Source: Candidatus Glassbacteria bacterium
Lineage (GTDB): Bacteria > Gemmatimonadota > Glassbacteria > GWA2-58-10
Assembly: GCA_963752515.1 (NCBI GenBank)
Contig: CAVVYO010000004.1
Span: forward strand, 449,225-513,224
Direction of reading: 5' to 3'
Length of the DNA stretch: 64,000 bases
This document shows, piece after piece, positions 31,452-53,593 of the stretch (positions within the stretch are counted from its first letter, which is position 1; each line of letters begins with the position of its first letter). The position numbers were made by a program, and so were the translations under genes. The notes beneath the pieces were generated by a model. The model was not told the origin of the DNA. It was given only the letters and a program-made list of their open reading frames with translations, and ran no database searches.

Positions 31452-32490
31452 CAGCGCTTGCGTTTCTGGAACAGCACGGCGACAATGATGATCAGCGCCG
31501 GTGAGCATCAGCCGGCTGGCTTCGCCCACCGCGTTGATGCTCAGGATCTTTTCCAGGTAGCCGATGGTCAGGTCCCGAGCAGGGTCAGCCAGATCCCGCC
31601 GCGCCCGCCCTGCAGGCTGGTGCCGCCGATCACCACGATCGCGATCGCGGTCAGCTCGTAGCTGATCCCCGCCTCGGGGTCGCCCTGCAGCTCCTGGGCG
31701 GCCTGGCAGATCCCGGCCAGGGCGCAGAACAGCCCGCTCAAGGCGTAGGCCAGCAGCTTGACCCGGCCCACCGGCACGCCCGAAAGGCGCGCGGCCTCCT
31801 CGTTGCCGCCGATCGCATACAGGTAGCGGCCCCAGCGCAGGCGGCTCAGCACCACCCAGCAGGCCAGCACGCAGGCCAGCAGGATCAGGGTCACCACAGT
31901 CAGATTGTCACCCAGGACCGCGGAGTTCAGCAACTCGAACACCGCGGGACGTCGCGACATACTGATAGCTGCCGTCAGGCTGCTGGACGGCGGTGGAGAT
32001 TTTCTGCCCGCCCGAAACCAGCTTGGCCAGCCCCCGGGCGAACACCATCATGGCCAGGGTGGCGATGAACGGCTGGATCGCGAACCGGGCGATCAGGCCC
32101 CCCGAAGACCGCCCCCAGCAGCGCCCGCCAGCCACGCAGACAGGCCGGGATCGCCGCCAGGGCGACCAGCCCAGGTGGATGGTCAACAGCGAGAACACCA
32201 CCGCCACCAGCGCCAGCAGGCTCCCCACCGAAAGGTCGATCCCGCCGGTGATGATCACCAGGGTCATCCCGCAGGCCAGAATCCCGAACACCGAGACCTG
32301 GCGCAGCATGTCGCGGTGGGTGCCCCACTTGAAAAACGCCCCATCGGCATTGAAAGCCATCCCCAGGGCGAACACCACCAGCAGCGACAGCAGCGCCCGC
32401 GCGGTCGGGGAACGCAGCAGCCCCCGCAGGGCCTCGCCCGAGCGACAGGGCGGTCGCGGGCCGGACCTGCGGCTCGACAGCCTGTTTCAC
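31452..32490 (-). pseudogene. Sugar ABC transporter permease (RbsC-type), at least four frameshifts
   Basis: Recognisable permease segments lie in different frames: FGILACGMTLVIITGGIDLSVGSLLAL; IQPFIATLAMMVFARGLA; RWGRYLYAIGGNEEAARLSGVPVGRVKLLAYALSGLFCALAG; ALIIIVAVLFQKRKR-stop. The GTG start overlaps the ATPase stop (GTGA). Confidence 0.75.
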
Positions 32491-34087
32491 GTTTCCTCCC
32501 CCAGCGCGGCGGCCAGGATTTTTTCCTGGGTGGCCTCGGCCCGCGGCAGAACTCGGCCGTGCACCGCCTTCCCCGGGACATCACCATGATCCGGTCGCTC
32601 AGCGCCAGCAGCTCCGGCATCTCGGAGGTGATCAGCAGGATCGCTCGGCCCTCGGCGGTCAGGCGGTCCATCAGCTGGTAGATTTCCTGCTTGACCGCCA
32701 CATCCACCCCGCGGGTAGGCTCATCCAGCAGCAGCACCCGCGGCGAGGTCTCCAGCCAACGGGCCAGCACCACTTTCTGCTGGTTGCCGCCGGAGAGGGT
32801 GCCCACCGGCTGCTCCAGGCCGGCGGCGCGCAGGTCCAGCTCCCGGGCGCGGGAGGCGGCGGCCCGGCGCTCGCCGCCGGCATCCAGCCAGCCCGCCCGG
32901 CTGAATTTTCCCAGCGCGGCCAGGCTGATGTTCTCGCGGATGCTCAGCTCCGGGATGATCCCCTCCGCTTTACGATCATTGGTGAGCAGGGCCAGCCCGC
33001 GGGCGATCGAGCCGGCCGGCGAGCGCACCGGCAATGGCGCTCCCGCCAGGGTAACCCGCCCCGCAGCTGGCGCCCCGTAGCGCCCGAACAGCCCGCCCAG
33101 CAGCTCGCTGTGGCCCGAGCCCTGCAAACCCGCCACCCCGACCATCTCCCCGGCGCGCAGGGCGAAAGAGACCCGGTCCACTGCCAATGGCCCTTTGGTT
33201 CCCCGGGCGCGCAGGGAAAAATCCTCCACCCGCAGCAGCTCCGGCCCGGGATGGGCTCCGCGGGAGGGAAACTGCTCGGTGACCGCGCGGCCGACCATCC
33301 AGCGGATCAGCTCGGGCCGCGGCAGGTCGGCGGCGGCGGCGGTGCCCACCTTGCGGCCATCGCGCAGCACCGTGATCCGGTCGGCCAGGCGGTAGATTTC
33401 CTCCAGCTTGTGGGAAATGTAGATGATCCCGCAGCCGCGCGCCTTGAGCCGCCCGATCAGCGCGAACAGGCGCTCGGCCTCGGGGGCGGTCAGGCTGCTG
33501 GTGGGCTCGTCCATCACGATCACCCGGCTGTCCAGCGACAGGGCGCGGGCGATCTCCACCAGTTGCCGCACCGGGAGCGGGCAGTCCCCCACCGGGCGCT
33601 CGAGGTCCAGCTCCAGGCCAAGGGCGCCCAGCAGCCGGCGCGCCTCGCTCCGCTGGCGGGGGCGGTCCAGCAGCAAGCCGCCCCGGGTGCGCTCCCGTCC
33701 GAGGAACAGGTTGTCGAGCCACGCTGAGCGCCGGGATCAGGGAGATTTCCTGGTAGATCACCGCCAGGCCCTGGCGGTAAGCCTGCTGGGGAGAGTCGAA
33801 CCGCACCGGCCGCAAGGGAGGCCCAGCCGCACCCGGCCCTGATACTCGGAGTGGACCCCGGCCAGGATTTTGATCAGGGTGCTCTTGCCCGCGCCGTTCT
33901 CGCCGGCGAGCACGTGCACCTCGCCCGGACGCAGCTCGAAATCCACCCCCTCCAGCACGCGCACCCCGGCGAACCGCTTGCCGATCCCCTCCATCATCAG
34001 CAGGGGCTGATCCGGTCCGGGAACAGGAACGACTTGCGCGGCGGAAGCAGGCGGCATGGGGCTGTCGTGGGAAAAGGGAACGGTCAT
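32487..34087 (-). pseudogene. Sugar ABC transporter ATP-binding protein (RbsA-type, duplicated ATPase), at least three frameshifts
   Basis: Walker [10 protein letters not shown] in frame 1. [27 protein letters not shown] in frame 2. Frame 3 holds signature/Walker B of domain 1 and all of domain 2 (LSGGNQQKVVLARWL, LLLDEPTRGVD). The C-terminal tail is shifted again near 32575. Frame changes are near 33815, 33718 and 32575. Confidence 0.8.
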
Positions 34088-35744: not shown

Positions 35745-36314
35745 ATTTTTCTACTTCTGTGACCAGAAGTAGCAAGAGTCTTGTGAAGCCAAGGCCGCGA
35801 AGCTGAAAGACCATCGCGGTCTTTAACAGCCGCCGAGGGTACGAGGGAAAAAAGTCGCTCCCACACGCGGTCGCCGCGTTTCGCGCCGCATGATACCCTG
35901 GCGCTGCAACGCATGGCCTGCCGACCTCTCTCGCTTCGTAGCAGTAGCCACGATGGAAATCGGGAAAATCTACCGCCGCTGCCTCTGGCCTCCAGCCGCG
36001 GCCCGCAAGGCCCCCCCTCCCAAGAACAAGATGCCCTGGCCCTTGTCTTGTCTTTCATCCCCCAGCGCCCGTTCCGGGCGCTCCGCGGCAGCAACTGTAT
36101 GAGCCAAGCCGGAGCAGCGGTTACAGAGCTCATGATCCCATGAACAGATGAAGCAGAGGCCAGAATTGACCGGCAGATGCGCGTCAGCGCTGCCCACCCT
36201 CACGGGTAGCGTAAAGAACCCACGATTACAAGTGGCCAATTGAAGACCATCAATGGTATGCGAGTTTTGCGCCGCACAGACTCTTGCTTCTTCTGGTCAC
36301 AGAAGAAGAAAAAT
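35745..36314. repeat. 570-bp non-coding element bounded by ~40-bp imperfect inverted repeats (MITE-like or large structured RNA)
   Basis: The left arm is ATTTTTCTACTTCTGTGACCAGAAGTAGCAAGAGTCTTGTG (35745-35785). The right arm (36275-36314), reverse-complemented, reads ATTTTTCTTCTTCTGTGACCAGAAGAAGCAAGAGTCT-GTG. Each arm also holds a local hairpin, CTTCTG-TGAC-CAGAAG. There is no credible ORF inside. Confidence 0.6.
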
Positions 36315-38679: not shown

Positions 38680-40338
38680 ATGCCGCTGTCGCTCAACACC
38701 AACATCTCCGCGATTACCGCGCGGCGCAACCTGCTGCGTGTCAACGGCCAGCTCAAGACCAGCATGGAACGGCTCTCCAGCGGCCTGCGGATCAACCGCA
38801 GCGCGGACGATGCCGCCGGGCTGACCATCGCCGAGAACCTGCACGCCCAGGTGGTCGGCCTCAACCGGGCGGTCACCAACGCCACGGATGGGATCTCGCT
38901 GATCCAGACCGGCGAGGGCGCGATGCAGGAGGGCAGCGCCATCCTGCATCGCATCCGCGAGCTGTCGGTGCAGGCCGCCAATGGCACCCTCACCAGCCGC
39001 GACCGCCAGGCCATCCAGAACGAGGTCTCGCTGCTGATCGACGAGATCAACCGCATCGCCTCCACCACCACGTTCAACAGCATCAACCTGCTCAACGGCA
39101 ATTCCTCGGCCCTGATCTCCACCAGCAACCCGGCCGATGTCAACGGGATCGTGGTCGGCGATGTGGGCCAGGGCGGAATCTACTCGGTGACAATCCAGGT
39201 GAGCGAGTCGGCGGATGGCGGACGGCTGTTCGGCGCCAGCCAGGTGATCGGCACCGAGATCCTGACCCGCACCGGCGAGAACGGCCGGGTCTACGATGCC
39301 GCCCCGGAAACCACCCTGCAATCGCTCAGCCAGTTCCGGAACTTCAATGTGTTCGATGGCGGGATCCGCAGCATCACCCTGAACCTGAGCTCGGACGGCG
39401 ACAACAAGATCGCCGACATCGAGCTCTTCGCCACCGACACCCTGGAGATCGCCCGCGCCCGGATTTCCCTGGCGATCAACGACCCCGACCAGACCACCGA
39501 CCTCGGGCTCGGCGGGGGGATCTCCTACGGGGCGCCGCTGGTGAAGATTGCCTCGGTGGGCCAGGCCCCGGGCGGGGGCAGGCCCGGCGGGACCGTGCTG
39601 CTGATCGCCAATCCCGAGCCCGGCCGTCGCCTGGTCTGGGGCGGCGATGACAACACCCTCTCGGCCCTGGGCTTCACCACGATCCAGGAGTCCCAGCCGC
39701 CGGTGTTCTCGGTGACCGTCAACAATCTCTCCAGCCCGTTCCAGCAGCTGATTCCCCGCACCCTCAAGGTCTTCGGCGACCGGGCCTCGGGCCTGATCGA
39801 CGGCGTGGATGTCAACTTCCGCACCACGCTCAACATCAGCCTCTCCGGGGCCACCAGTACCCGGGTCGGCTCGTTCGAGGTCCCCGAGCTGGTGGTCAGC
39901 CGCCACAGCGACAACTCCAGCTTCCTGCTCGAAGTCACCCCCCGGCCGCTGGTGTTCCAGATCGGCGCCAACCAGGGGGATGTGCTCTCCACCAGGATCA
40001 GCGATATCAGCGCCGCCAGCCTGGGGATCAAGGGGATCAACATCGTCGACCGCACCCTGGCCGGGGAGTCGATCCGCACGGTCGACCTGGCCCTCAAGCG
40101 GCTCAATGCCGAGCGGGCCAACCTCGGCGCGGTCCAGAACCGCCTCGAGAGCACGATCCGCTCGCTGCGGGTCGCCTCGGAGAACCTCACCGGCAGCGAG
40201 AGCCAGATCCGCGACCTGGATTTCTCGGACGAGATCGTCAACTTCACCTCGCTCCAGGTGCTGTCCCAGTCGGCCACCACCTTCCTGGCCCAGGCCAACG
40301 CCCTGAGCGGATCGGTGCTGACCCTGCTCGGCGGATGA
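38680..40338 (+). CDS. fliC: Flagellin (paralogue 1, 552 aa)
   Basis: N-terminal MPLSLNTNISAITARRNLLRVNGQLKTSMERLSSGLRINRSADDAAGLTIAENL and C-terminal ...GAVQNRLESTIRSLRVASENLTGSESQIRDLDFSDEIVNFTSLQVLSQSATTFLAQANAL are canonical D0/D1 flagellin segments. Confidence 0.95.
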   Translation: MPLSLNTNISAITARRNLLRVNGQLKTSMERLSSGLRINRSADDAAGLTIAENLHAQVVGLNRAVTNATDGISLIQTGEGAMQEGSAILHRIRELSVQAANGTLTSRDRQAIQNEVSLLIDEINRIASTTTFNSINLLNGNSSALISTSNPADVNGIVVGDVGQGGIYSVTIQVSESADGGRLFGASQVIGTEILTRTGENGRVYDAAPETTLQSLSQFRNFNVFDGGIRSITLNLSSDGDNKIADIELFATDTLEIARARISLAINDPDQTTDLGLGGGISYGAPLVKIASVGQAPGGGRPGGTVLLIANPEPGRRLVWGGDDNTLSALGFTTIQESQPPVFSVTVNNLSSPFQQLIPRTLKVFGDRASGLIDGVDVNFRTTLNISLSGATSTRVGSFEVPELVVSRHSDNSSFLLEVTPRPLVFQIGANQGDVLSTRISDISAASLGIKGINIVDRTLAGESIRTVDLALKRLNAERANLGAVQNRLESTIRSLRVASENLTGSESQIRDLDFSDEIVNFTSLQVLSQSATTFLAQANALSGSVLTLLGG

Positions 40339-41019
40339 CCAGCCCGGCAGCCATGAAATGCAGACCCGCAACGACCGGATTCGAGCCTATATAATGTAGC
40401 ACCCCTGCCCCGCGCGCCCGGCCTGGCTCGCGGATGCAGGCGGCGATCCGCCGGCGGGACGGGCCGTGAACGCGCGGTCCTCCGGCTTTTGTCCCTGGCT
40501 CGCCCCGCAAGCGGCCGGATCGCATCTCGAGCCGCAGCTTGCCTTTCACCCTGAGGGTCATGGATGACCCCTGCCGGACAAGGAGGTCCACCCTATGCCA
40601 GCCGGTTAGCCAACCATCACAGCCACGCCGCGTGATCTTTCGCGGCAGGATGGCAGGCGTTCGCGCCCGCTCCGGCGAGGGGGGATGTTCTCCCGCGCCA
40701 CGGCCCAGCCTCAAGGGCTGTCAGCGCCGCCCGCGCCCCCGCCCATCCTGCCCCCCGGGGAGCGCCGTGCCCAAGCGGCCGGTGCTCCGGGAAACGGCGA
40801 AGCCTTGCCTGTCGCGGATCCGGTGGACCAAACCACCCCGGAAGCCGCGGCGCAAGCGGAAGCGCCACGCCCCAAAAGGACGCGAGCACGCCCGGGCGGC
40901 CCCCCGGAGCCGCGACCGGTTTCGCGCCGGAAGCGGGCCGGAGGCGGTCCGCCCGACACCCGAATCACCCCGCGGGCGGGGATGGAACCTCGCCCCTCAC
41001 GCATCAAGGAGGATGAATC

Positions 41020-42651
41020 ATGGCCGGACTAACCCTGAATACCAACATCGCCTCGATCAACACCCGCCGCAACCTGCTGCTGCAGAACAAGCGGGTCACC
41101 AAGAGCATGGAGCGCCTCTCCTCGGGCCTGCGGATCAACCGCGCCGCGGACGATGCCGCCGGGCTGACCATCGCCGAAAACCTGCGGGCGCAGGTGATCG
41201 GCCTGAGCCGGGCGGTGGCCAACTCCCAGGATGCGATCTCGCTGATCCAGACCGCGGAAGGCGCGCTGGGCGAGGCCCATAACGTGCTGCAGCGGATGCG
41301 GGTGCTGGCGATCCAGTCCGCCAACGGCACCCTGACCAGCCGTGACCGCAAGGCCCTGCAGGACGAGGTGTTCCAGTTGATCGACGAGGTCGACCGGATC
41401 GCGATGACCACCTCGTTCAACTCGATCAACCTGCTCAACGGCAATGTCGGGGCGCTGGTCTCGACCGATGATCCCAACAACATCACCGGGATCGTGGTCT
41501 CCGATGTCGGCGAGGGCGGTACTTTCTCGGTGGCGATCAATGCGATCGATGTCGGCAAGATGCAGGTGCAGAACAGCCAGACTTTCGTGCGGGTCAACGA
41601 GGCGGGCGAACCGCTGGATGCCAACCTCAACACCCAGCTGCAGTCGATCAGCCGCTTCCAGGACTATGGGGTGTTCACCGGCGGCCAGGATTCGGTGACC
41701 CTGACCATGAGCTCGGATGTCGACAACAAGATCACCACCGTGCAGGTCTTCGCCACCGACACCCTGGGCCAGTTGATGGGCAAGATCTCGCTGGCGATCA
41801 ACGACCCCGACCAGACCACCGACCTCGGGCTGGCCCCGGGCGTGTCCGACGGCGCCAAGCTGGTGTCGATCTCCAGTGTCGGCCTGGCCCCCGCCGGCGG
41901 CGCTGTCGGTGCGACCAGCCTGGTGATCACCACCCCCGAGCCGGGCCGCAAGATGGTCTTCGGCGGCGAGTCCTCGCTGCTGACCGCCCTGGGCTGCAAC
42001 GAGATCCAGAGCGCGGTTCTGCCGGTGTTCTCGCTGACTGTCAAGGACGTGGGCGAGGGAACCATCGCCACCAAGAGCACCCGGGTCTATGGCAACCGGG
42101 CCAGCAACCTGATCCGCGGCGTGGACATCTCCTTCCGCACCACGCTCGACATCTCGCTCAGCTCGACCCAGACCGATCCGGTCGGGGCTTATCGCGTCTC
42201 CAAGCTGGTCCAGAACCAGCGCCCCGGCCCGGATGGATTCATCATCCAGGTTTCCCCGCGGCCGCTCAGCTTCCAGATCGGCCCGAACCACGGCAACTTC
42301 ATCAACACCCAGATCGGCGACATGACCGCCCGCTCGCTGGGGATCCAGGGCCTGAACATCTCCGACCAGTTCCTGGCCCAGGAGACGATCAAGCCGATCG
42401 ACAAGGCGATCGACCTGGTCAGCGCCCAGCGCTCCACTCTCGGCGCGGTCCAGAATCGACTGGAGAGCACGATCGCCAACCTCAGCGTGGCGTACGAGAA
42501 CCTGAGCGCCTCCGAGAGCCAGATCCGCGACCTGGACTTCTCCCACGAGGTGATCGAGTTCACCTCGGCGCAGATCCTGACCTCCTCGGGGACCAGCTTC
42601 CTGGCCCAGGCCAACGCGCTGAGCAACAACATCCTGACCCTGCTGCAGTAA
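41020..42651 (+). CDS. fliC: Flagellin (paralogue 2, 543 aa)
   Basis: Canonical flagellin N- and C-terminal domains. The central domain is colinear with the other three paralogues (ISRFQDYGVFTGG, FATDTLGQ, TTPEPGRKMVFGG). Confidence 0.95.
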   Translation: MAGLTLNTNIASINTRRNLLLQNKRVTKSMERLSSGLRINRAADDAAGLTIAENLRAQVIGLSRAVANSQDAISLIQTAEGALGEAHNVLQRMRVLAIQSANGTLTSRDRKALQDEVFQLIDEVDRIAMTTSFNSINLLNGNVGALVSTDDPNNITGIVVSDVGEGGTFSVAINAIDVGKMQVQNSQTFVRVNEAGEPLDANLNTQLQSISRFQDYGVFTGGQDSVTLTMSSDVDNKITTVQVFATDTLGQLMGKISLAINDPDQTTDLGLAPGVSDGAKLVSISSVGLAPAGGAVGATSLVITTPEPGRKMVFGGESSLLTALGCNEIQSAVLPVFSLTVKDVGEGTIATKSTRVYGNRASNLIRGVDISFRTTLDISLSSTQTDPVGAYRVSKLVQNQRPGPDGFIIQVSPRPLSFQIGPNHGNFINTQIGDMTARSLGIQGLNISDQFLAQETIKPIDKAIDLVSAQRSTLGAVQNRLESTIANLSVAYENLSASESQIRDLDFSHEVIEFTSAQILTSSGTSFLAQANALSNNILTLLQ

Positions 42652-42837: not shown

Positions 42838-42987
42838 ACCAGAATAGTTGGCAATATCACCGGGCAAATTCGTTAACTGCGGCGACCAGATAACTCGAAT
42901 TGTGCCTCCGGCCGGGAAGCTGCACCCTTCCCAGGGACGTAGTCCGCCCGCCGGAAGCACGCCGGATCATCACACTCAATCGAAGGC

Positions 42988-43026
42988 AATAAAAAAAGGC
43001 TTTTGGAGCCCCCCTCCAAAAGCCTT
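42988..43026 (-). terminator. Minus-strand rho-independent terminator inside the fla2-fla3 spacer
   Basis: 13-bp stem AAGGCTTTTGGAG/CTCCAAAAGCCTT. On the minus strand it is followed by TTTTTTTATT. On the plus strand no U-tract follows. Confidence 0.55.
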
Positions 43027-43551
43027 AGGCAGCACAACAACATCGGTCGGAAAAAGGTCTCTTCGCAAGTGGCCCTTTCAGTGATGTGTATTGTGCCGTA
43101 TTGCGCTTGCCATTACTGCAATACACATGCCACTTCGCGAACAGCCCTCCCGGATCTTAGGATCCTCCCCGACCGAATAATTGCCCAGGCCGCGCCATGG
43201 CGTCAACAGCGGACTTCCGCAGGGATTGCGGCTGTCCGGCGCCGGCGCCTGAAAAAACCGCCCGTTGCCGCCGACGCCATTTGTCGCCGCCGGCGGCGGA
43301 AAAAATCACCGGCATCGGGAAAAAAGCAGCTGGCCCTGTGACCATACACCATAAATGGAGAAAAGCCAAACAGACGCTCATCCGTTCACTGACGAACCAA
43401 CCCCAGGAGGAACTGCATGAACCTAAAACGCTAGCCTGGTACGGGAAAAACTTCAAGGTTGCCGCCGAAACTCAGGTTCAACTTGAACTTTCTCATGGGC
43501 AAACGTTCTGTTGGGTAAGGATACCTTAACAGACGATCAAGGAGGATAACG

Positions 43552-45183
43552 ATGGGTTTAACCCTTAATACAAATGTTGCGGCGATCAATGCAAAACGGA
43601 ACCTGCTGATCAACAACCGCGCCGTGGGCAAGTCCCTCGAAAAGCTGTCTTCCGGTTTGCGGATCAACCGCGCCGCCGATGACGCCGCCGGCCTGAGCAT
43701 TGCCGAGAACCTGAGAGCCCAGGTGGTCGGTCTCGGTCGGGCGGTGGCCAACTCCCAGGATGCGATCTCGCTGATCCAGACCGCCGAGGGCGGCCTGAAC
43801 GAGACCCACAACATCCTGCAGCGCATCCGCTTCCTGACCGTGCAGTCGGCCAACGGCACCTACACCAGCCGCGACCGCCTGGCGATCCAGGACGAGGTCG
43901 GGCAGTTGCTGGACGAGGTGAACCGGATCGCCTCGACCACCACCTTCAACAGCATCAACCTGCTCAACGGCAATGTCGGCGCGCTGGTCAGCACCGATGA
44001 CCCGGTCAACAGCATCCAGGGCCTGGTGGTCGGCGATGTCGGCGATGGCGGCACCTTCTCGGTCGCGGTCAGCGCGATCTCGGTCGGCAAGCTGCAGGTC
44101 CAGAACTCCGAGCTGTTCGTCACCATCAAGGAGAACGGCGACCCGATCGATGCCAACGCCAACACCCAGTTGCAGTCGATCAGCCGCTTCATGGACTTCG
44201 GCGTGTTCACCGGCGGCATCGACTCGGTGACCCTGACCATGAGCCAGAACGGCAGCAACGATGTGACCGAGATCCAGATCTTCGCCACCGACACCCTGGG
44301 CGAGCTGGCCCGCAAAGTCTCCCTCGGGATCAACGATCCCACCCGGGTGAGCGACCTGGGCATGGCGGCGACGATCTCCGACGGCGCCACTCTGGTCTCG
44401 ATCGGCCGGATCGGTCTGGCCCCCGCCGGCGGCGGCGCGGGCACCACCTCGATCGTGATCACCACCCCGGAGCCTGGCCGCAGCATCGCTTTCGGCGGCG
44501 AGTCCTCGATCCTCTCGGCTCTCGGCTTCAACGAGATCCAGAAGGCAGTGGCCCCGGTGTTCTCGATCACGGTCAAGGACATCGGCCAGGGCGAGATTCC
44601 GGACCGGGTGGCCAAGGTCTACGGCGACCGGGCCAGCGGCCTGGTCCAGGGCGTGGACCTGCGCTTCCGCACCACGCTGGACATCTCGCTCAGCGCCACC
44701 GCCAAGACCACGATCAACGCCTACAATGTCTCCAAGGTGGTCAACAACTCCCTGGCCGGCCCGGACGGATTCGTGGTCCAGGTCTCCCCGCGGCCGCTCA
44801 GCTTCCAGATCGGCCCGAACCACGGCAACTTCCTCAACACCCAGATCGGCGACATGTCCGCCCGCTCGCTGGGGATCGACGGCCTGAACCTGTCGGATCA
44901 GTTCATCGCCCAGGAGTCGATCAAGTCGGTGGACCAGGCGATCAGTCAGGTCTCCACCCAGCGCGCCGCGCTCGGTGCGGTCCAGAACCGCCTGGAGAGC
45001 ACCATCGCCAACCTGAACGTGGCGCACGAGAACCTGAGCGCTTCCGAGAGCCAGATCCGCGACCTGGACTTCTCGGATGAGGTGATCAACTTCACCTCGC
45101 GCCAGGTGCTGGTCAGCTCGGCCACCTCGTTCCTGGCCCAGGCCAACTCGCTGAGCAACAACATCATGTCGCTGATCCGCTAA
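43552..45183 (+). CDS. fliC: Flagellin (paralogue 3, 543 aa)
   Basis: Canonical flagellin termini, same length as paralogue 2 and colinear with it throughout. Confidence 0.95.
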   Translation: MGLTLNTNVAAINAKRNLLINNRAVGKSLEKLSSGLRINRAADDAAGLSIAENLRAQVVGLGRAVANSQDAISLIQTAEGGLNETHNILQRIRFLTVQSANGTYTSRDRLAIQDEVGQLLDEVNRIASTTTFNSINLLNGNVGALVSTDDPVNSIQGLVVGDVGDGGTFSVAVSAISVGKLQVQNSELFVTIKENGDPIDANANTQLQSISRFMDFGVFTGGIDSVTLTMSQNGSNDVTEIQIFATDTLGELARKVSLGINDPTRVSDLGMAATISDGATLVSIGRIGLAPAGGGAGTTSIVITTPEPGRSIAFGGESSILSALGFNEIQKAVAPVFSITVKDIGQGEIPDRVAKVYGDRASGLVQGVDLRFRTTLDISLSATAKTTINAYNVSKVVNNSLAGPDGFVVQVSPRPLSFQIGPNHGNFLNTQIGDMSARSLGIDGLNLSDQFIAQESIKSVDQAISQVSTQRAALGAVQNRLESTIANLNVAHENLSASESQIRDLDFSDEVINFTSRQVLVSSATSFLAQANSLSNNIMSLIR

Positions 45184-45260
45184 GCAGGTCGATCCAGGGA
45201 ATGACGGTCTTGGCAGCCAGGGGTAAGACATGAACGGACAGTCGTTCTTGGCACCGCTCT

Positions 45261-45308
45261 AAAAAAAAGCCGGCTCCGGGTTCTGGCTACCCGGAGTCCG
45301 GCTTTTTT
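45261..45308. terminator. Bidirectional rho-independent terminator after flagellin 3
   Basis: AAAAAAAA-GCCGGCTCCGGGT-loop-ACCCGGAGTCCGGC-TTTTTT. Confidence 0.7.
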
Positions 45309-45310
45309 CT

Positions 45311-45350
45311 GGCAAAAAGCGGGCTTATGAAGCTGCAACTTCATAAGCCC
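45311..45350 (-). terminator. 12-bp hairpin with CTGCAA loop; reads as a minus-strand terminator
   Basis: GGGCTTATGAAG-CTGCAA-CTTCATAAGCCC. On the minus strand it is followed by GCTTTTTGCC. Confidence 0.45.
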
Positions 45351-45692
45351 TGCACCCTGGACTTCCGCGAAGAAGCTCCCGGGGTCGTGGGGACTCCGGG
45401 AAAGAGGTGCAGCCGACGTTTGTGCAAGTTGCGTACCAGAAGCCACTCCAAGCCGGACCGGGGTGGCTTCCGGTTTTTCCGGCCGGCACTCCTCCGCGTT
45501 GCAACAGTTTGCATGTCAAGCTGTTGCAACAACCGAACGCCATGAACCCGGCCGAGCTCAGCCCCTCCCGGCCCGACCTTCTCCGGCAAATCCTTCCGCT
45601 TTCCCGCGCCCGGCCGCCGCTGCACTTTTTGCCCCGGGCCGGCTGCAACATTTTCCCCGCCGGGGCTGTCCCGCGGTCTCCCAAAAAAGTAC

Positions 45693-45719
45693 TAAAGCTT
45701 ACCTTTGGGCTGCCGATAA
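45693..45719 (+). promoter_or_regulatory. Consensus sigma28 promoter (TAAA-N15-GCCGATAA), ~790 nt upstream of flagellin 4
   Basis: TAAA at 45693-45696, an exact 15-nt spacer, then GCCGATAA at 45712-45719. Confidence 0.7.
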
Positions 45720-46511
45720 AGGAAGCAGGGCGATAGTATCCGGTTTTCCGAACGCTCCGCGCCACGGGACGAAGCTGCAACTTCTCCGCGGCGCTCGACT
45801 GAAACGATCCGCGAAGAAGCTCGAAGGACAACGGGGTGCCGTTCCAGGAGAAGTGGTTTGTGCATTTGTATCGCACGCCCGCTCCTGCCGCTTTAGCTTC
45901 GCCTTCCCGTCTTTCTTCCGAGCCGCATTCCTCCGCGGACAATCAATCGACCGTAACACAGGCAGCACCCGGCGACAGCCTTCCACCCGTGTGGTAAACG
46001 CTGACCGCCGGCCCAGCCGGTGCATTGCCCGGGCGTGAACCGCAAGCTGCAACTTGCCGCGCCCGGTGGGGAACATCCGCGAAGAAGCAGCTTGGGGGTA
46101 AGTTCCGCCAGAGCGGCGGGATCGCGCCGGGTCCGGATTCCGGCTTGTCCGCGGTCCCGCCGCCGCCATCGCCCCACCTCCTCCTTTGCCGATCCCTTCC
46201 CACGCTCCCGGCTCCAGCACACGACAAACAGCCGCAACTGTTTGTAGAGGGTTGAACCAGTTGTTGTTGGACCAGCTTCCTCCCGGTTTCCCGCCAAATG
46301 TTGTCTGGTCGCCGCCGATTGACATTTGCCCGCCGGTGACAGGGAGGAAGGATCAGCCCGGGAAGCTCCCCTCGGGTCGGCCCGCCGCGGCTCTGCGGCA
46401 AGCGCCGGCCCGGGGCCTCCCGGCGCCGGGACCGAGTTGTGCCATGCGAATCGGGAACATGGAGCAGCAGCGAAGGGAGCACCACATCTACCCGGAATCA
46501 AGGAGGATCTG

Positions 46512-48122
46512 ATGCCTGGACTGTCGATCAACACCAACATCCCGGCGATCCTGGCCCGGAGGCAGCTCAAGATCGCCACCGGCCGGATGACCACTTCTCT
46601 GGAAAGCCTGGCCTCGGGCCTGCGGATCAACCGCGCCGCGGACGATGCCGCCGGGCTGACCATCGCCGAGAACCTGCGCGCCCAGGTGGTGGGACTCGAC
46701 CGGGCCATCTCCAACGCCCAGGACGGGATCTCGCTGATCCAGACCGCGGAAGGGGCCCTCGCCGAGAACACCAGCATCCTGCAGCGCATCCGCGAGCTGT
46801 CGGTGCAGTCGGCCAACGGCACCCTGACCAGCCGGGACCGCCTGGCGATCCAGAACGAGGTCAACCAGTTGATCGACGAGGTGGACCGCATCGCCGAGAC
46901 CACCGAGTTCAACTCGATCAAGCTGCTCAACGGCAATGTCGGCGCTCTGGTCAGCACCTCCGACCCGGAGAGCATCGATGGGATCGTGGTGGGCAATGTC
47001 GGCACGGGCGGGGTCTACTCGATCACGGTCAGCGCCCAGGACCTGGGCCGCCTCCAGGTGCAGACCTCCGAGGTCTTCGTCACCATCGACTCCAACGGCA
47101 ATGTCTCCAATGCCGCGGACTCGACCCAGCTCCAGTCGATCAGCCGCTTCCAGGACTTCGGGGTTTTCGGCTCCGGCGTCGACAGCGTCACGATCAAGCT
47201 CGGCACCGATGCCTCGACCAACCTGGCCGATGTGACGATGTTCCGCACCGACACTTTGCAGGATGTCGCGGCGCGCATCTCGCTGGCGGTCAACGACACC
47301 ACCAGCAGCAAGGACCTGGGGCTGGGCGGGGCCGCCGCGGTGGGCGACCAGCTGGTCGGGATCGCCACCAATGTCGGCAGCGAGGATGTCACCCAGATGT
47401 TCGTCCTCACCCCCGAGCCCGGGCGCCGGATCACTTTCGGCGGCGATGCCTCGGCCCTCTCCGCCTTCGGCTTCTCCGAGATCCAGGGGGCCAAGAGCCC
47501 GATCTTCTCCCTGACTGTCACCGACATCGGGGCCAACGGCGGGGCCACCACCACCAAGAGCCTAAAGGTCAGCGGCAACCGGGCCAGCGGGCTGATCAAC
47601 GGCGTGGACCTCAGCTTCCGCACCAACCTGGACATCTCGATCGGCGGCAGCTCCACCCTGGCCGGGTTCAGCGTGGTCCGGCCGCTCTCGATCACCGGCA
47701 GCGCCAATTTCGTGCTGCAGGTGTCCCCGCGCCCGCTGACCTTCCACATCGGCTCCGGCGCCGGGCAGACCCTGTCGACCCAGATCAATACCATGAGCGC
47801 GAGGGCCCTCCAGGTGGACAAGATCAACCTGACCGACCAGAACCTGGCCAACCAGGCCGTGCGGGTGGTGGACAACGCGCTCAATGTGGTCTCGGCCCAG
47901 CGCTCCACCCTCGGCGCGGTGTCCAACCGCCTCCAGAGCACGATCTCCAACCTGGAAGTGGCCAACCAGAACCTCCAGGCCAGCGAGAGCCAGATCCGCG
48001 ACCTGGACTACTCGGACGAGATCATCGAGTTCGTCACCGCCCAGATCCTCAACACCTCGGCCACCAGCTTCCTGCGCCAGGCCAACGCGGTGTCGAACAA
48101 CGTACTGCAGCTGCTCTCCTGA
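46512..48122 (+). CDS. fliC: Flagellin (paralogue 4, 536 aa)
   Basis: AGGAGGA SD 4 nt before the ATG at 46512. MPGLSINTNIPAILARRQLKIATGRMTTSLESLASGLRINRAADDAAGLTIAENL plus a canonical C-terminus. The ORF-track start at 46326 is an upstream extension. Confidence 0.93.
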   Translation: MPGLSINTNIPAILARRQLKIATGRMTTSLESLASGLRINRAADDAAGLTIAENLRAQVVGLDRAISNAQDGISLIQTAEGALAENTSILQRIRELSVQSANGTLTSRDRLAIQNEVNQLIDEVDRIAETTEFNSIKLLNGNVGALVSTSDPESIDGIVVGNVGTGGVYSITVSAQDLGRLQVQTSEVFVTIDSNGNVSNAADSTQLQSISRFQDFGVFGSGVDSVTIKLGTDASTNLADVTMFRTDTLQDVAARISLAVNDTTSSKDLGLGGAAAVGDQLVGIATNVGSEDVTQMFVLTPEPGRRITFGGDASALSAFGFSEIQGAKSPIFSLTVTDIGANGGATTTKSLKVSGNRASGLINGVDLSFRTNLDISIGGSSTLAGFSVVRPLSITGSANFVLQVSPRPLTFHIGSGAGQTLSTQINTMSARALQVDKINLTDQNLANQAVRVVDNALNVVSAQRSTLGAVSNRLQSTISNLEVANQNLQASESQIRDLDYSDEIIEFVTAQILNTSATSFLRQANAVSNNVLQLLS

Positions 48123-48232
48123 AGATGGAGCAGGTGAGCGGCGGCACTGACAGCGGCAGTCCCCGCCCGCGGCGCGACGGCTGACCCGGCGCGCCGCGGG
48201 TCCGTCACCAGCCAGTGCCAGCGGAGGTGCCC

Positions 48233-48625
48233 ATGTCCGACCGGATCATGGCCCAGGAAGCGGCGGTGCGGCAGGCGCTCCTGTCGGCCCTCCCCAAATC
48301 CGCCGGCGGCCGCGCCGCCCCGAAATCCGAACCGGCCGACCCGCCGGCCGAGGCGCAGCGCTCCGCGGCCGCCGCGCGGCTCGCCGAGGAGCAGGCCCTG
48401 ACTCAGGAGCAGTCGGCCCGGCTGATCGCGGGCCTCAACGACCTGTTCCGCATTTTCGGAGTCGAGGCCCGCTACTTTATCGATCCGCAGACCGAGACCC
48501 TGGTGGTCCAGCTCCGCGACAACGAGACCCGTAAACTGATCCGCCAGATCCCGGACGAGGAGTTCATCTCGCGCATCGCCCACACCCGCGAGCTGATCGG
48601 CCTGCTGATCGACCAGCGGGCGTGA
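48233..48625 (+). CDS. flaG: Flagellar protein FlaG
   Basis: The C-terminal segment FGVEARYFIDPQTETLVVQLRDNETRKLIRQIPDEEF matches the FlaG family. It follows the flagellin array. A GGAGG SD precedes the ATG at 48233; the alternative GTG is at 48215. Confidence 0.8.
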   Translation: MSDRIMAQEAAVRQALLSALPKSAGGRAAPKSEPADPPAEAQRSAAAARLAEEQALTQEQSARLIAGLNDLFRIFGVEARYFIDPQTETLVVQLRDNETRKLIRQIPDEEFISRIAHTRELIGLLIDQRA

Positions 48626-48911: not shown

Positions 48912-50667
48912 TCAGGAACGCTTCCGGCCCCGGCCGGACCCGCCCCGGCCCTTGCCCGGCGCCACGCTCCCGCCCCCGGCCACCGCCGCCGCCGGCTGCT
49001 TGGCCGGGAGCGCGGGACCGTGGTACTTGCGGTTGATGTAGAGCTGCTGGGCCATCTGGAACAGGTTGAAGAAGGTGTAGTACAGCACCAGCCCGGACGG
49101 GAAATTCAGGAAGATGAAGGTCATGAAGAACGGCATGATGTAGAGCATCGGCTTCATCTTCGGGTCGGTCTGGGTCGGCGTGAGCTTCTGCGAGATGAAA
49201 GTGGTCGCGCCCATCACCACCGGCAGGATGTAGAACGGGTCGGGCTGGCTCAGGTCGTTGATCCAGCCGAACGCCGCGGCGCCGCGGAACTCGATGGTGC
49301 GCTGGAAGACATAGAACAGCGCGATGAACACCGGCATCTGGATCAGCAGCGGCAGGCAGCCGCCCAGCGGATTGACCTTCTGCTCGCGGTACAGTCGCAG
49401 GGTCTCGGCCTGCATCTTCTGCGGGTCATCCTTTAGCCTCCTTCATCTCGGCCATCATCGGCTGGATCTGCTGCATCCTGATCTGGCTCTTGGTGCTCTT
49501 GATGGTCAGGGGATAGAACACCACCTTGATCAGCAGGGCGAAGATCACCAGGATCAGCGCGTAGTTGGCGATGTAGCGGTGGAGCCAGAGCATGATCTCG
49601 AGCGAGATCTTGGTGAAGGGCTGGACGATCACCCAGCCGTACTCGAGGATCTTCGGCAGCCCGAAGTTGAGCGCCTTGACCTGCTGGTAGGACTGCGGCC
49701 CGACATACACCGAGTACGCGACCGGCTCGACACCTTCCGGCACCGGGAAGAAACCGCTGAAAGCCAGCTCGCGGGTCTCGGCGCTCCCGGCGGCGGACAG
49801 CCCGGTCATCGGCCGGTCGGGGACAAAGAACGTGGCCAGGAAGTACATGCTCTTAAGGCCGCCCCAGAGCACCGGCTCGTCCAGGGTCGGGGTCCAGCCG
49901 CCCTCGCCCAGGTCTTTCAGGTCCTTGGAAACCACCTCGCCATCGACATAGTAGGCGACCCCGTAGTCTTTGAAATCGGTCTTGGGGTCCTTCTCGTTGG
50001 AGACCAGGGTCGGGCCGAGCATCACCTCGAGGCGGTTGTCCCGGGCCCCGTGGAGCACGGGCGGCAGGTGCAGCTCGGCCTCGATCAGGTAGGAGTCGTG
50101 GCGGAAGCCGTAGACCAGCCGCAGCGTTTCGCCCCCCGGCAGGCGGTGGACCAGCTCCAGCGTCCCCTGCGGGTTGTTCGGCCCCAGTTCCAGCCGGCGG
50201 GTGCTGGGCTCGAACAGGCGCTCGCCCAGCTCGACCGGCTGGCTCGAGCCTTGCAGGTGCAGGCGGGCCTGGAGGAACTGGCTGCCGGTGAGCGGGACCA
50301 GTTGGACCGGCAGCCGCCGGTTGTCATCCTCCTGCTGCCCGGCGAACGACTGGTACTGCTTGAGCCAGGCCCGGGTCATCACCCCGCCGCGGGTGATGAA
50401 GTGGTACTCGTAGAGCTCGGAGCTGACCACCACCGTATCGGCGGCAACGGCTTCCATCGCGGCGGAGGGCTGCTCCCCCAGTTCCAGGGCGGGCGCGCCG
50501 GGCGTGGTCGCGGGCGCCGATGACCGCTGAACCGGCGCGGCGGTGTCCGCCTGCTGCTGCCCGGCCGTGGGCGGCATCCCCGGTTTCGGCTTGGGCGCCA
50601 GGAACACCAGGTAGCCCATCCAGACCGCGAACACCAGCAGCATGGCCAGGGCCGATCTCTTTTCCAT
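48912..50667 (-). CDS. yidC: Membrane protein insertase YidC (single 1-nt frameshift near 49425-49432)
   Basis: The N-terminal fragment runs [19 protein letters not shown]...[18 protein letters not shown]-stop. The C-terminal fragment [34 protein letters not shown]... follows in an adjacent frame. Removing one G in GCTAAAGGATGACCCG restores ...[12 protein letters not shown]... Confidence 0.85.
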
Positions 50668-50744
50668 GTTTTTTCCCTTATGGTTGCGGCAATCCGGTTG
50701 AACCGGCCGGAGGACCCTCGGCCGCCCGAACGGTAGCGACTGGT

Positions 50745-50972
50745 TCAGGGCAGATCGACTCCGCCCGGGTGGAAGGGGTGGCACTTGAGCAGCCGTTTCG
50801 CCGACCGCCAGGAACCTCGCAACGGCCCGTACTTGATCAGGCTCTGTCTGGCGTATTCCGAGCAGGAGGGGTAGAAGCGGCAGGCAGGCGGCAGCAGCGG
50901 TCCGATCGCCGCCTGGTAGACCTTCACCAGGGCCAGGAGCACCGCCCCCAGCGCTTTCTCGATGAGCTTCAT
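50745..50972 (-). CDS. yidD: Membrane protein insertion efficiency factor YidD
   Basis: [71 protein letters not shown] is the diagnostic YidD sequence. Confidence 0.9.
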
Positions 50973-51340
50973 TTCCGGTCCTCCCCCCCGCCCGCTTCCG
51001 GGGCGCGCGGCGGGACCCGGCCCTCCAGCCGGGAGAAACGCTCCCGCAGCCCCGCGAAATCCAGCTCGTAGGCCCAGGGCTTGACCCGGACCACCACTTC
51101 CCAGCCGCGGGCCAGGGGCGCCGAAGTCCGCAACAGCTCCTGGAGCCGGCGCTTGAGACGGTTGCGGAGCACGGCGGTGCGGCCGAATTTCGGGACCACC
51201 ACCGCCGCCCGGCTGCGCCCGCCATCCGGCAGGGCCAGCAGGTGCAGCCGCAGGGAGTCTTGCGCCAGGCGCTGTCCCTCGGCCATCACCCGCTTGATCT
51301 CGCTGCCGCGGCGGATGGAGATTTTTCGCGCCAGTCCCAT
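50969..51340 (-). CDS. rnpA: Ribonuclease P protein component
   Basis: 123-aa basic protein ([24 protein letters not shown]) between rpmH and yidD. Confidence 0.88.
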
Positions 51341-51885: not shown

Positions 51886-53593
51886 GTGACCTTTTCGGAA
51901 GGGATCGCGCCCGCGATGGAAGAGATGCTCAGAACCGCCGTGGACCAGGCTCTGCGGAAAATGGGAATCGAGAGCCCCCCGGACTACGTGGTGGAGAAAC
52001 CCAAGGACCCGCGCCACGGCGACCTGGCGGCCAATGTCGCCTTCCTGCTGGCCCGCAGCCTGCATCGCAAGCCCCAGGAGATCGGCCTGGAGCTGGTCGA
52101 GAAGCTGGAGCTGGACAGCCCCTACCTGCAAAAGATCGAGGTGGCGCCCAACGGCTTCATCAATTTCTTCATCGACCCCCGCTGGTGCATCGACCGGCTG
52201 GCCGAGGTCCAGCGCGAGGGCGAGCGCTACGGGCTGGGCCAGGCCCTGGCCGGGCGCAAGGTAATGGTCGAGTTCGTCAGCTCCAACCCCACCGGCCCGC
52301 TGACCATCGGCCATGGCCGCCAGGCGGTGCTGGGCGACTGCCTCAGCTCGGTGCTGGAGGCGCAGGGGGCGGCGGTCTGCCGGGAGTACTACTACAACGA
52401 TGCCGGCAACCAGATGAACATTCTCGGCCGGAGCCTGCGCGCCCGCTACGCCCAGCTCTTCGACCCGGCTTTCCCTTTCCCGGAGAACGGCTACAAGGGC
52501 GACTACATGCTGGAGATCGGCCCGCAGTTCGCCGCCATCCACGGCGAGCGCTACCGTCCCGCCGGCCCGGATGACCCGGAGCCCGACCCGGCAGACCCTC
52601 GGAACTGTTCCGCGGTTTCGCCGCCGAACGCATCCGCCGGTGATCGATCAGGACCTCAAGGAGTTCCGCATACGGTTCGATGTCTGGAGCCTGGAGAGCG
52701 GGCTTTACACCGAGGGCAAGATCGACAGCGCTGCTGGCGCTGCTGAAGGAGCGGGGCCTGAGCTATGAGCACGAGGGCGCGGTCTGGCTGCGCACCGCCG
52801 AGTTCGGCGACAGCGAGGACCGGGTGATTGTCAAGAGCACCGGCGAGCCGACCTATTTCCTGCCCGACCTGGCCTACCACATGGACAAGCACGAGCGCGG
52901 CTTCGATGAAGTAATCAATATCCACGGGGCGGACCACCACGGCTACGCGCCCCGGATGCTGGCCGGGATGAAAGCCCTGGGCTACCCCGAGGGCTGGCTG
53001 CGTTACGTGATCCACCAGATGGTCAGTTTCAAGGAGGGCGGGAGGCGGTGAAGATGTCCACCCGCGCCGGCCAGCTTTATCATGCTCAAGGACCTGTGGA
53101 CCAGGTCGGGGTGGATGTGGCCCGCTATTTCTTCGTGATGCGCAAGGCCGACAGCCATCTGGTTTTCGACCTGGACCTGGCCCGCAAGCAGTCCAATGAG
53201 AACCCGGTCTATTACTGCCAGTACGTCCATGCGCGGATCTGCAGCCTGACCCCCACCGCCCGCGAGGCCGGGCTGTGGAACGGGGACCGTCGAAATGTGG
53301 AAGGTTACAGCCCTCGCGCCTCGAACACCCCGAGGAGCTGGAGCTGATCAGCCACCTGACTCGATTTCCCGGCCCTGGTGCGCCGTGCCGCCCTGGCGCT
53401 GGAGCCGCACCACATGCCCTATTTCCTGGAGGAGCTGGCCCGCCGTTTCCACGCCTGGTACCAGCGCCACCGCATTGTCGACCGCGAGCAGCCGGAGCTT
53501 TCGCGCGACCGTCTTTACCTGGCCGACTGCGTGCGGTCCGCGATGGCCAACGGGCTGCGGCTGCTGGGAATCACCGCCCCGGAAAAGATGTGA
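51886..53593 (+). pseudogene. argS: Arginine--tRNA ligase, reading frame broken many times (probably assembly indels)
   Basis: ArgRS segments occur in successive different frames: PKDPRHGDLAANVAF...SSNPTGPLTIGHGR (HIGH-type motif); IDQDLKEFRIRFDVW; LLKERGLSYEHEGAVWL...GEPTYFLPDLAYH...HGADHHGY; KMSTRAG; [14 protein letters not shown]...[13 protein letters not shown]; EPHHMPYFLEELARRFHAWY...GITAPEKM-stop. The likely true start is the ATG at 51916. Confidence 0.85.

Follow-up and report, generated by a model that had tools for sequence, protein, structure and literature searches.

In Vibrio cholerae the small RNA (sRNA) FlaX, an RpoN-dependent class III transcript whose gene adjoins flaA, pairs with three sites, two of them alike, in the 5' untranslated region (5'UTR) of flaB, and it has been proposed to reinforce the order of class III before class IV (PMC11879080). 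This is the nearest known logic, an RpoN-tier sRNA beside a flagellin gene and repeated sites in the 5'UTR of another flagellin, to that of a locus in a 64-kb bacterial segment of 65% G+C from Candidatus Glassbacteria (contig CAVVYO010000004.1; the whole stretch analyzed is hereafter called the window). The 1.33-kb spacer between the third and fourth of its tandem flagellin genes carries three repeats, units A, B and C, each consisting of a hairpin with loop CUGCAA (box 1) followed by a second conserved box (box 2, CCGCGAAGAAGC). The three are probably not equal binding sites: their anatomy points to unit A as the gene of an antisense sRNA, here called sRNA-2, and to units B and C as its targets. 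The interpretation preferred here, with moderate confidence, is that unit A is a sigma-54-driven antisense sRNA gene whose product would act on two modules, B and C, in the leader of the sigma-28-type flagellin-4 gene.

Compared with FlaX, sRNA-2 lies on the opposite strand, has a sigma-54-type promoter and a terminator of its own, and shares no sequence similarity; the ribosome-binding site is over 400 nt away from its proposed targets, which are hairpin-plus-box modules, and the system is predicted from sequence. A further difference, both from FlaX and from the looser parallels, is the presence here of a cis-antisense paralogue, sRNA-1, in the leader of flagellin-3. Among those looser parallels, CJnc230/FlmE and CJnc170/FlmR of Campylobacter jejuni are sRNAs of the RpoN/FliA tiers that adjust late flagellin output, CJnc230 being processed from the flgE mRNA and targeting flgM and Cj1387c (PMC11187230). 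The targets of CJnc230 do not include a flagellin leader, and it is not homologous to sRNA-2. The E. coli sRNAs FliX, MotR, FlgO and UhpU are sigma-28-dependent, UTR-derived RNAs of flagellar transcription units, encoded on the sense strand and associated with Hfq, with targets that include the coding sequences of ribosomal protein mRNAs (PMC10578931). FliX and MotR are flagellar sRNAs too, but as sense-strand, sigma-28-dependent RNAs they are unlike sRNA-2. FliX derives from the 3'UTR region of a flagellin gene (fliC).

Cis-encoded antisense RNAs such as CopA/CopT of plasmid R1 and RNA I/RNA II of ColE1 dock by loop-loop kissing and overlap their targets. The likeness to them lies in the loop-loop complementarity and in the colinear, antisense relation of regulator and target; unlike them, sRNA-2 would come from a displaced paralogous copy and would act in trans, and only sRNA-1 overlaps its target. 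CsrA and FliW control flagellin leaders via 5' leader hairpins (e.g., B. subtilis hag and C. jejuni flaA), a likeness that consists in post-transcriptional control through flagellin leader hairpins, and the Shine-Dalgarno (SD) region of flagellin-4, CAAGGAGGA, would also suit CsrA. The unit hairpins themselves were rejected as CsrA/Rsm-binding RNA (GGA or ANGGA in loops), as a loop GGA occurs in 0 of 40 (the loops being CUGCAA on the plus strand and UUGCAG on the minus strand). They were likewise rejected as ANTAR targets, which consist of two adjacent hairpins with hexaloops that have A at position 1 and G at position 4; CUGCAA has C at both positions. A search of the window with Rfam 15 at the gathering threshold gave a tRNA as its sole match, and a scan with E-values up to 10 over 45150-46550 returned sub-threshold chance matches only; the RNAs described here have no sequence in common with any described family. 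An earlier reading of this DNA, made from the letters alone (the sequence-only reading), had suggested a repeated RNA hairpin that binds a protein in flagellar control; the RNA level and the flagellar setting of that suggestion stand, and the specific protein site is unsupported.

Box 1 (AAGCTGCAACTT) and box 2 each occur exactly three times in the 64 kb, at 45330, 45772 and 46044 and at 45365, 45809 and 46077, respectively, always in the spacer, as the sequence-only reading had described. When mismatches are allowed box 2 is found at the chance rate (13 in the window versus 12.2 expected), so that its exact copies alone carry meaning. Model R1, a covariance model derived from 40 instances of the unit, was searched on both strands and gives scores of 60 bits for A, 53.6 for C and 41.5 for B, with 7.8 bits for the next best match in the window; in the relatives it finds exactly three units (A, B and C) per locus, and no unit in other flagellin leaders nor in more distant flagellin loci. 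The relatives were collected by scanning a single genome of each species for box 1 with box 2 at 18-32 nt after it, which yielded 8 loci, and by a metagenome scan that added about 9 further distinct sequences, for a total of about 17 Glassbacteria/Gemmatimonadota genomes and metagenome contigs. The match in every locus is unit A, just 3' of a flagellin-3 orthologue (80-85% amino acid identity) and about 1.2 kb 5' of the flagellin-4 orthologue. The 8 genome loci belong to metagenome-assembled genomes labelled Gemmatimonadales or Candidatus Glassbacteria, except one labelled 'archaeon' (L004, DATKXY010000086.1); the flagellin locus on the latter contig is bacterial and includes units A, B and C as well as the two sRNA genes, and the contig is almost certainly misbinned.

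The box-1 hairpin is a selected RNA hairpin. Over 40 distinct units 95.5% of stem cells are paired and 5 of 5 pairs have changes on both sides, values reached by 0 of 500 shuffles; the stems read GAAG/CUUC, GAAA/UUUC, GCAG/CUGC, GCGG/CCGC or GCAAG/CUUGC, while the loop CUGCAA and box 2 are invariant, apart from a few loop exceptions (locus L010 and the loss lineages, described below). The spacing between box 1 and box 2 ranges from 23 to 40 nt, and units are identical between genomes whose intergenic flanks cannot be aligned. None of the open reading frames (ORFs) of the spacer passes the test for G+C at third codon positions (GC3), a signature of the real genes of this genome. Covariation of the stem around a fixed loop excludes both a coding sequence as the source of the repeats and a half-site operator in DNA; the repeats are real, and selection on them is strong. 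The compensatory stems and the non-coding origin put forward by the sequence-only reading were thereby borne out. Two conditions which that reading had named as refuting it also turned out in its favor, as the motif is found nowhere else in the window and is kept at the orthologous flagellin loci. The wider family that it listed was not borne out: the other hairpins with a similar loop score at chance level with R1 (7.0 bits, E about 1, at 42914; 5.4 bits at 35904) or are not detected by it (46226, whose stem is not kept in orthologues), the double palindrome GTTGCAAC at 45498-45530 is confined to this window, and TGCAAC is not enriched over the window, with 22 occurrences versus 21.7 expected, the 8 in the spacer arising from three unrelated features.

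Nor are the three units equivalent, as had been supposed: unit A is set apart from B and C by a sigma-54-type promoter and a terminator on the minus strand and by a paralogue of like anatomy. It is embedded in a block of about 160 nt that is almost identical between genomes with unalignable flanks, and that reads on the plus strand as an A-run, the 12-bp box-1 hairpin, GCACC, box 2, a variable hairpin (P3), GGUGC (which pairs with GCACC), a variable stretch, the invariant GCAA-N6-T-N-CC and a terminator-like hairpin, T2. The features on the opposite strand, and those of the paralogue, are as follows.

45314 to 45411, minus strand: predicted sRNA-2 (unit A read on the opposite strand), about 98 nt, from covariance model R2, folds and the minus-strand terminator.
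45423 to 45438, minus strand: sigma-54-type promoter of sRNA-2, TGGTAC-GCAAC-TTGCA (GG-N10-GC), with a predicted start near 45411.
42989 to 43132, minus strand: paralogue sRNA-1, antisense inside the flagellin-3 leader, with a predicted RNA from about 43106 to 42989 (about 118 nt).

With TGGCAC-N5-TTGCW as the sigma-54 consensus (GG at -24 and GC at -12, exactly 10 nt apart), the sRNA-2 promoter agrees at 10 of 11 positions, both in this window and in most homologues. Each of the 18 distinct homologues of unit A has (T/G)GG(A/T)A(C/T)-N5-TTGC on the minus strand with invariant spacing, at a fixed distance of 11-12 nt from the start of conservation at GCACC, which is where a sigma-54 transcript would start. 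The invariant columns of the alignment (A2) are exactly GG, A and TTGC; the N5 and the stretch from -11 to -1 vary freely, and conservation resumes at GCACC. Sites with at least 10 of 11 matches number 4 in the window versus 0.8 expected, two of them being the promoters of sRNA-1 and sRNA-2, and across the 17 related loci matches at this threshold fall only at these two orthologous positions, always antisense to the flagellins. Upstream of the predicted sRNA-2 promoter by 60-107 bp stands an inverted repeat, GTTGCAACAGTTTG-N5-CAAGCTGTTGCAAC (45498-45530), seen in this window only; it could be an activator-binding site in this genome, though unconserved in relatives.

The predicted transcript begins with UGCACC (P2'), followed by the P3' hairpin, a hairpin containing anti-box 2 (GCUUCUUCGCGGAAG), GGUGCA (P2') and a terminator hairpin of 13 bp (loop UUGCAG) that is followed by a U-run, and its predicted fold is alike in all homologues, with P2' enclosing P3' and the anti-box 2 hairpin and the terminator hairpin last. 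On the minus strand the terminator hairpin (45350-45321, 13 pairs) is followed by a U-run to 45314 that is kept in all homologues; on the plus strand the same hairpin is preceded by an A-run and lacks a following U-run. An independent terminator scan calls it a minus-strand intrinsic terminator, and every unit A, in all loci, is matched at 97-118 bits by model R2, which was derived from the minus-strand sequence of unit A. Inspection also led to the rejection of a pseudoknot in which the CUGCAA loop of unit A would pair with sequence downstream, as it is confined to this window.

The same anatomy is found in sRNA-1. Its promoter, TGGCAT-GTGTA-TTGCA at 43132-43117 on the minus strand, matches the consensus at 10-11 of 11 positions and is nearer to it than that of sRNA-2; its terminator hairpin (43026-42996, 13 pairs, with a loop of G residues) is followed by U7 at 42995-42989, is also called by the terminator scan on the minus strand, and has a stem (GGCUUUUGGAG...CUCCAAAAGCC) nearly identical to that of unit A. 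Model R2 scores 22-37 bits on this paralogue, and TGGCA(C/T)-N5-TTGC(T/A), the RNA body and the terminator are present in 9 of 9 orthologous flagellin-3 leaders. The anatomy that the two paralogues share settles the predicted pattern of a promoter plus a terminator on the minus strand; transcription of the two genes and their use of sigma-54 are inferred.

Folding across genomes favors the minus strand as well. P3 of unit A has a summed energy of -225 kcal/mol on the minus strand versus -200 kcal/mol on the plus strand, with 16 versus 5 G-U pairs, the minus strand being better in most lineages, and the sRNA-1 core has -228 versus -203 kcal/mol. Unit A is bracketed by two hairpins of the plus strand.

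45262 to 45308, plus strand: T1, intrinsic terminator of flagellin-3, found as inverted repeat I2 and by the terminator scan; kept in all loci.
45442 to 45478, plus strand: T2, terminator-like hairpin that abuts the sigma-54-type promoter; 15 G-U pairs on the plus strand versus 4 on the minus strand.

T1 has an A-run before it and a U-run after it, shows some covariation across loci, and contains 36 G-U pairs on the plus strand versus 23 on the minus strand; it could be active in both directions. T2 as a plus-strand terminator makes some plus-strand transcription across unit A probable.

The proposed targets lie in the flagellin-4 leader, which extends from about 45727 to 46511 (about 785 nt) and contains the following elements downstream of its promoter.

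45693 to 45719, plus strand: sigma-28-type promoter of flagellin-4, TAAA-N15-GCCGATAA, read from the sequence; in all loci, about 50 nt before unit B.
45771 to 45839, plus strand: unit B, proposed target module 1, with hairpin GAAG(CUGCAA)CUUC at 45771-45784, box 2 at 45809-45820 and GGGGUGC at 45833-45839.
45913 to 45938, plus strand: putative internal partner of unit B box 2 (UUCUUCCGAG..AUUCCUCCGCGG), from duplex z-scores.
46029 to 46099, plus strand: unit C, proposed target module 2, with hairpin GCAAG(CUGCAA)CUUGC at 46042-46057, an outer helix of 46029-46035 with 46060-66, box 2 at 46077-46088 and GGGGGU at 46094-46099.

About 100-130 nt downstream of box 2 of unit B lies a partner significantly complementary to the box and its 3' flank (12 of 16 sequences have z = -2.2 to -4.2), and box and partner change in step in their flanks (e.g., CUUGAA/UUCAAG versus CUCGAAG/CUUCCGAG); the two would form a long-range helix inside the leader. 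The same test finds no significant internal partner in the leader for box 2 of unit C, and RNAalifold on MAFFT alignments of units B and C recovers local hairpins alone.

Predicted sRNA-2 is colinearly complementary to three conserved islands common to units B and C: its terminator loop UUGCAG to the CUGCAA loops (6 nt, extendable to 7-10 bp), GCUUCUUCGCGG(AAG) to box 2 (12-15 nt), and its 5' GCACCC to GGGG(U)G, 12-25 nt beyond box 2. This complementarity is present at two sites in every locus, and the argument for pairing rests on its exactness and not on RNAduplex energies. Colinearity is what would be expected had unit A arisen by direct duplication of a module of the leader and come to be read in reverse. 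The boxes have remained identical in A, B and C while their surroundings diverged. Units A and B of L010 both have the loop CUGUAA (a C-to-U change), with unit C unchanged; in the proposed sRNA:B loop duplex an A-U pair would stand in place of G-C, and pairing would be preserved. The stems of A and B remain different in this locus, which argues against gene conversion. The loop of B is lost in L005 and L051 and the loop and box 2 of C are lost in L048, with A lost in none, as expected for two redundant targets.

In the mechanism proposed, sRNA-2 would be transcribed from the sigma-54 (RpoN)-type promoter at 45438-45423 and would end at the box-1 hairpin and U-run (45350-45314). Pairing would probably start loop to loop and then occupy box 2: the sRNA would dock on accessible loops and on unit C, and then compete with the internal helix of unit B, and as box 2 of unit B would otherwise be held in that long-range helix, pairing would remodel the leader. 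Output of the late, sigma-28-type flagellin would in this way be coupled to the sigma-54 tier of the flagellar programme, and sRNA-1 would do the equivalent in cis on the flagellin-3 leader. Possible routes from pairing to flagellin-4 output are a change in a hairpin at 46276-46350 with anti-SD and pseudo-SD arms (see below), cleavage of the duplex, and access of Rho to the long leader. By analogy with FlaX, we lean towards repression or delay of flagellin-4 as the effect.

Several observations weigh against this interpretation. In the window itself P3 is more stable on the plus strand and unit A folds equally on both strands (z = -5.95 and -5.98); the strands being indistinguishable there, the strand argument rests on the comparison across genomes. 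The plus strand of unit A is probably transcribed as well, by flagellin-3 read-through of T1. The -24 element of the sRNA-2 promoter has A or T where the consensus has C, variant promoters are found (GGGTAC in 2 genomes and TGGTAT in 1), and no conserved activator site is seen among the relatives upstream of either sigma-54-type promoter; some flagellar sigma-54 activators work without an upstream activator site. Compensatory change between unit A and its proposed targets amounts to one event (that of L010), and box 2 of unit A has no sequence variants among the loci found. When RNAduplex is applied to sRNA-2 and the leader, shuffled sRNAs reach the same energies on this long, GC-rich leader. 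Finally, anti-box 2 is predicted inside a hairpin and not as a free single strand, and the target sites, more than 400 nt upstream of the ribosome-binding site, offer no direct route to blocking translation.

Some of these points suit an alternative, on balance unlikely, in which all three units act on the plus strand as modules for one shared factor, either protein or RNA: B and C would be regulatory in the flagellin-4 leader, and A would be a decoy or sponge within flagellin-3 transcripts that run past T1 and end at T2. The identity of loop and box 2 in three units on the same strand, the plus-strand terminator T2 just after unit A and the equal folding of both strands in the window are all as such a factor would have it. 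The joint change of A and B in L010 also fits co-evolution with a shared reader; however, as unit C is unchanged there, the reader must accept both loops. The GG-N10-GC motif, the A-run before the hairpin and the like-built paralogue are left unexplained, P3 favors the minus strand, and the units contain no known protein-binding motif. Expression of unit A on the plus strand meets further difficulties, in that T1 looks like a strong terminator and in most loci the interval from T1 to the hairpin has neither the space nor a motif for a promoter on the plus strand. The shared-factor and sRNA interpretations can coexist, with plus-strand unit A serving as a sponge for sRNA-2.

It is improbable that the units are relics of a tandem duplication of the leader, with local structural roles and no cross-talk, so that an sRNA, if made, would be cis-only and its targets would be flagellin-3 read-through transcripts alone. 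A duplication history is suggested by the further homology of A and B (GGGUG and GUUUGUGC) and by the paralogy of the unit A hairpin and the flagellin-3 leader hairpin, and a local role by the internal partner of unit B box 2; yet box 2 of unit C is equally conserved though it has no such partner, the sole loop change is common to A and B, and independent roles would allow drift, whereas the 12-mer and the loop are identical in the three units in nearly all genomes. An array of double-stranded DNA operators for a flagellar transcription factor, which the sequence-only reading had also entertained, is scarcely credible: box 1 is palindromic, the array flanks the sigma-28-type promoter and the window has the additional GTTGCAAC palindromes, but stem arms that compensate around an invariant center are the opposite of half-site conservation, box 2 is not palindromic, the box spacing varies, transcription starts 45-360 nt upstream of B and C, and the extra palindromes are unconserved.

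The preferred interpretation, that unit A encodes an antisense sRNA directed at units B and C, can be extended to a circuit that we regard as doubtful and offer tentatively. Duplication of leader segments followed by acquisition of an opposite-strand promoter would have produced two sigma-54-dependent antisense sRNAs and, with them, an RNA-only step from middle to late expression among the tandem flagellins. In this three-RNA circuit flagellin-3 would be the cis target of sRNA-1 and flagellin-4 the trans target of sRNA-2, which would bind the two redundant modules via two kissing loops and displace the internal helix, and the flagellin-3 read-through RNA between T1 and T2 would sponge sRNA-2. 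A target-duplication route has been proposed for the origin of plant microRNA genes, of which this would be a bacterial counterpart.

Further conserved features lie in or near both flagellin leaders. In that of flagellin-4, the arms 46276-46294 and 46332-46350 form a covarying, conserved helix between a CU-rich, anti-SD-like arm (CUUCCUCCC) and a pseudo-SD (GGGAGGAAG); this helix, which may be a translational switch, precedes the true SD (CAAGGAGGA, about 46499-46507) by about 160 nt. A conserved element at 45619-45660, lying 35-75 nt upstream of the -35 element of the sigma-28-type promoter (45693-45696) and reading GCTGCACTTTTTGCCCC..GCTGCAACATTTTCCCC in the window and as a near-palindrome like GTGGAAAAATTTTCCAC in relatives, may be a transcription-factor site or an UP-like element. 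The flagellin-3 leader contains a mini-ORF at 43405-43434 (AGGAGG, an ATG 6 nt on, 4 more codons and a stop; MNLKR*), whose strong SD and 5-6 codons are kept in all orthologues with a variable peptide; it looks like a leader peptide or a ribosome-loading element. Close to the 5' end of the flagellin-3 leader lies CUGCGGCGACCAG (42879-42891), complementary to GGUUGCCGCC close to the 3' end of the same leader (43458-43470) and to the conserved CUGGUCGCCGCCG in the flagellin-4 leader (46308-46320), which could reflect a long-range helix in one leader or a contact between the two.

The four flagellin genes lie in tandem on the plus strand (38680-40338, 41020-42651, 43552-45183 and 46512-48122), all with Flagellin_N and Flagellin_C domains, and FlaG follows flagellin-4 at 48215-48625; genes for a cyclase, FlaG, YidC, arginyl-tRNA synthetase, transporters and cytochromes flank the cluster, those other than FlaG being of unrelated, housekeeping kinds, and the genes of the 64-kb window include no csrA, fliW, flbT, rpoN or activator gene. 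The order of the spacer is kept across the loci: T1, unit A, T2, about 200 variable nt, an A-tract and the sigma-28-type promoter (TAAAG-N15-GCCGATA), unit B about 50 nt on and unit C about 270 nt on, and then further conserved helices, the SD and the start codon. Wider scans, for flagellin-4 orthologues and for the terminator stem whatever its loop, recovered the same approximately 10 Glassbacteria-type genomes plus unrelated chance terminators only, and related flagellin loci in Hydrogenedentota and other groups are without units. Scans of the window with the sigma-54-type and the sigma-28-type consensus yielded no match between flagellin-1 and flagellin-2, and the corresponding spacers of 5 related loci gave no sigma-54-type match and weak sigma-28-like matches; this spacer before flagellin-2 (40339-41019) is unusually rich in G+C, up to 0.77. 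Elsewhere in the window several housekeeping genes, among them those for YidC, arginyl-tRNA synthetase, a branched-chain permease and an ABC ATPase, are broken up into neighboring pieces (48912-51225, 51886-53593, 31568-32378 and 33758-34087), which suggests assembly frameshift errors or pseudogenes.

If the sRNA interpretation is true, two unannotated sRNA genes and their target modules would be defined in Glassbacteria (Gemmatimonadota), an uncultured class in which, to our knowledge, flagellar regulation is unstudied. The base pairs CUGCAA/UUGCAG and box 2/anti-box 2 are directly testable, with L010 as a natural compensatory variant. The flagellin leaders of this clade, at 700-800 nt, would be marked out for annotation as regulatory RNAs of dense conservation, and they and both sRNAs would be candidate Rfam families. 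The sRNA would have an unusually legible origin, as a displaced paralogue of its own target read backwards, and the timing or restraint of a sigma-28 flagellin by a sigma-54-tier sRNA through repeated leader sites would have evolved independently here and in Vibrio.

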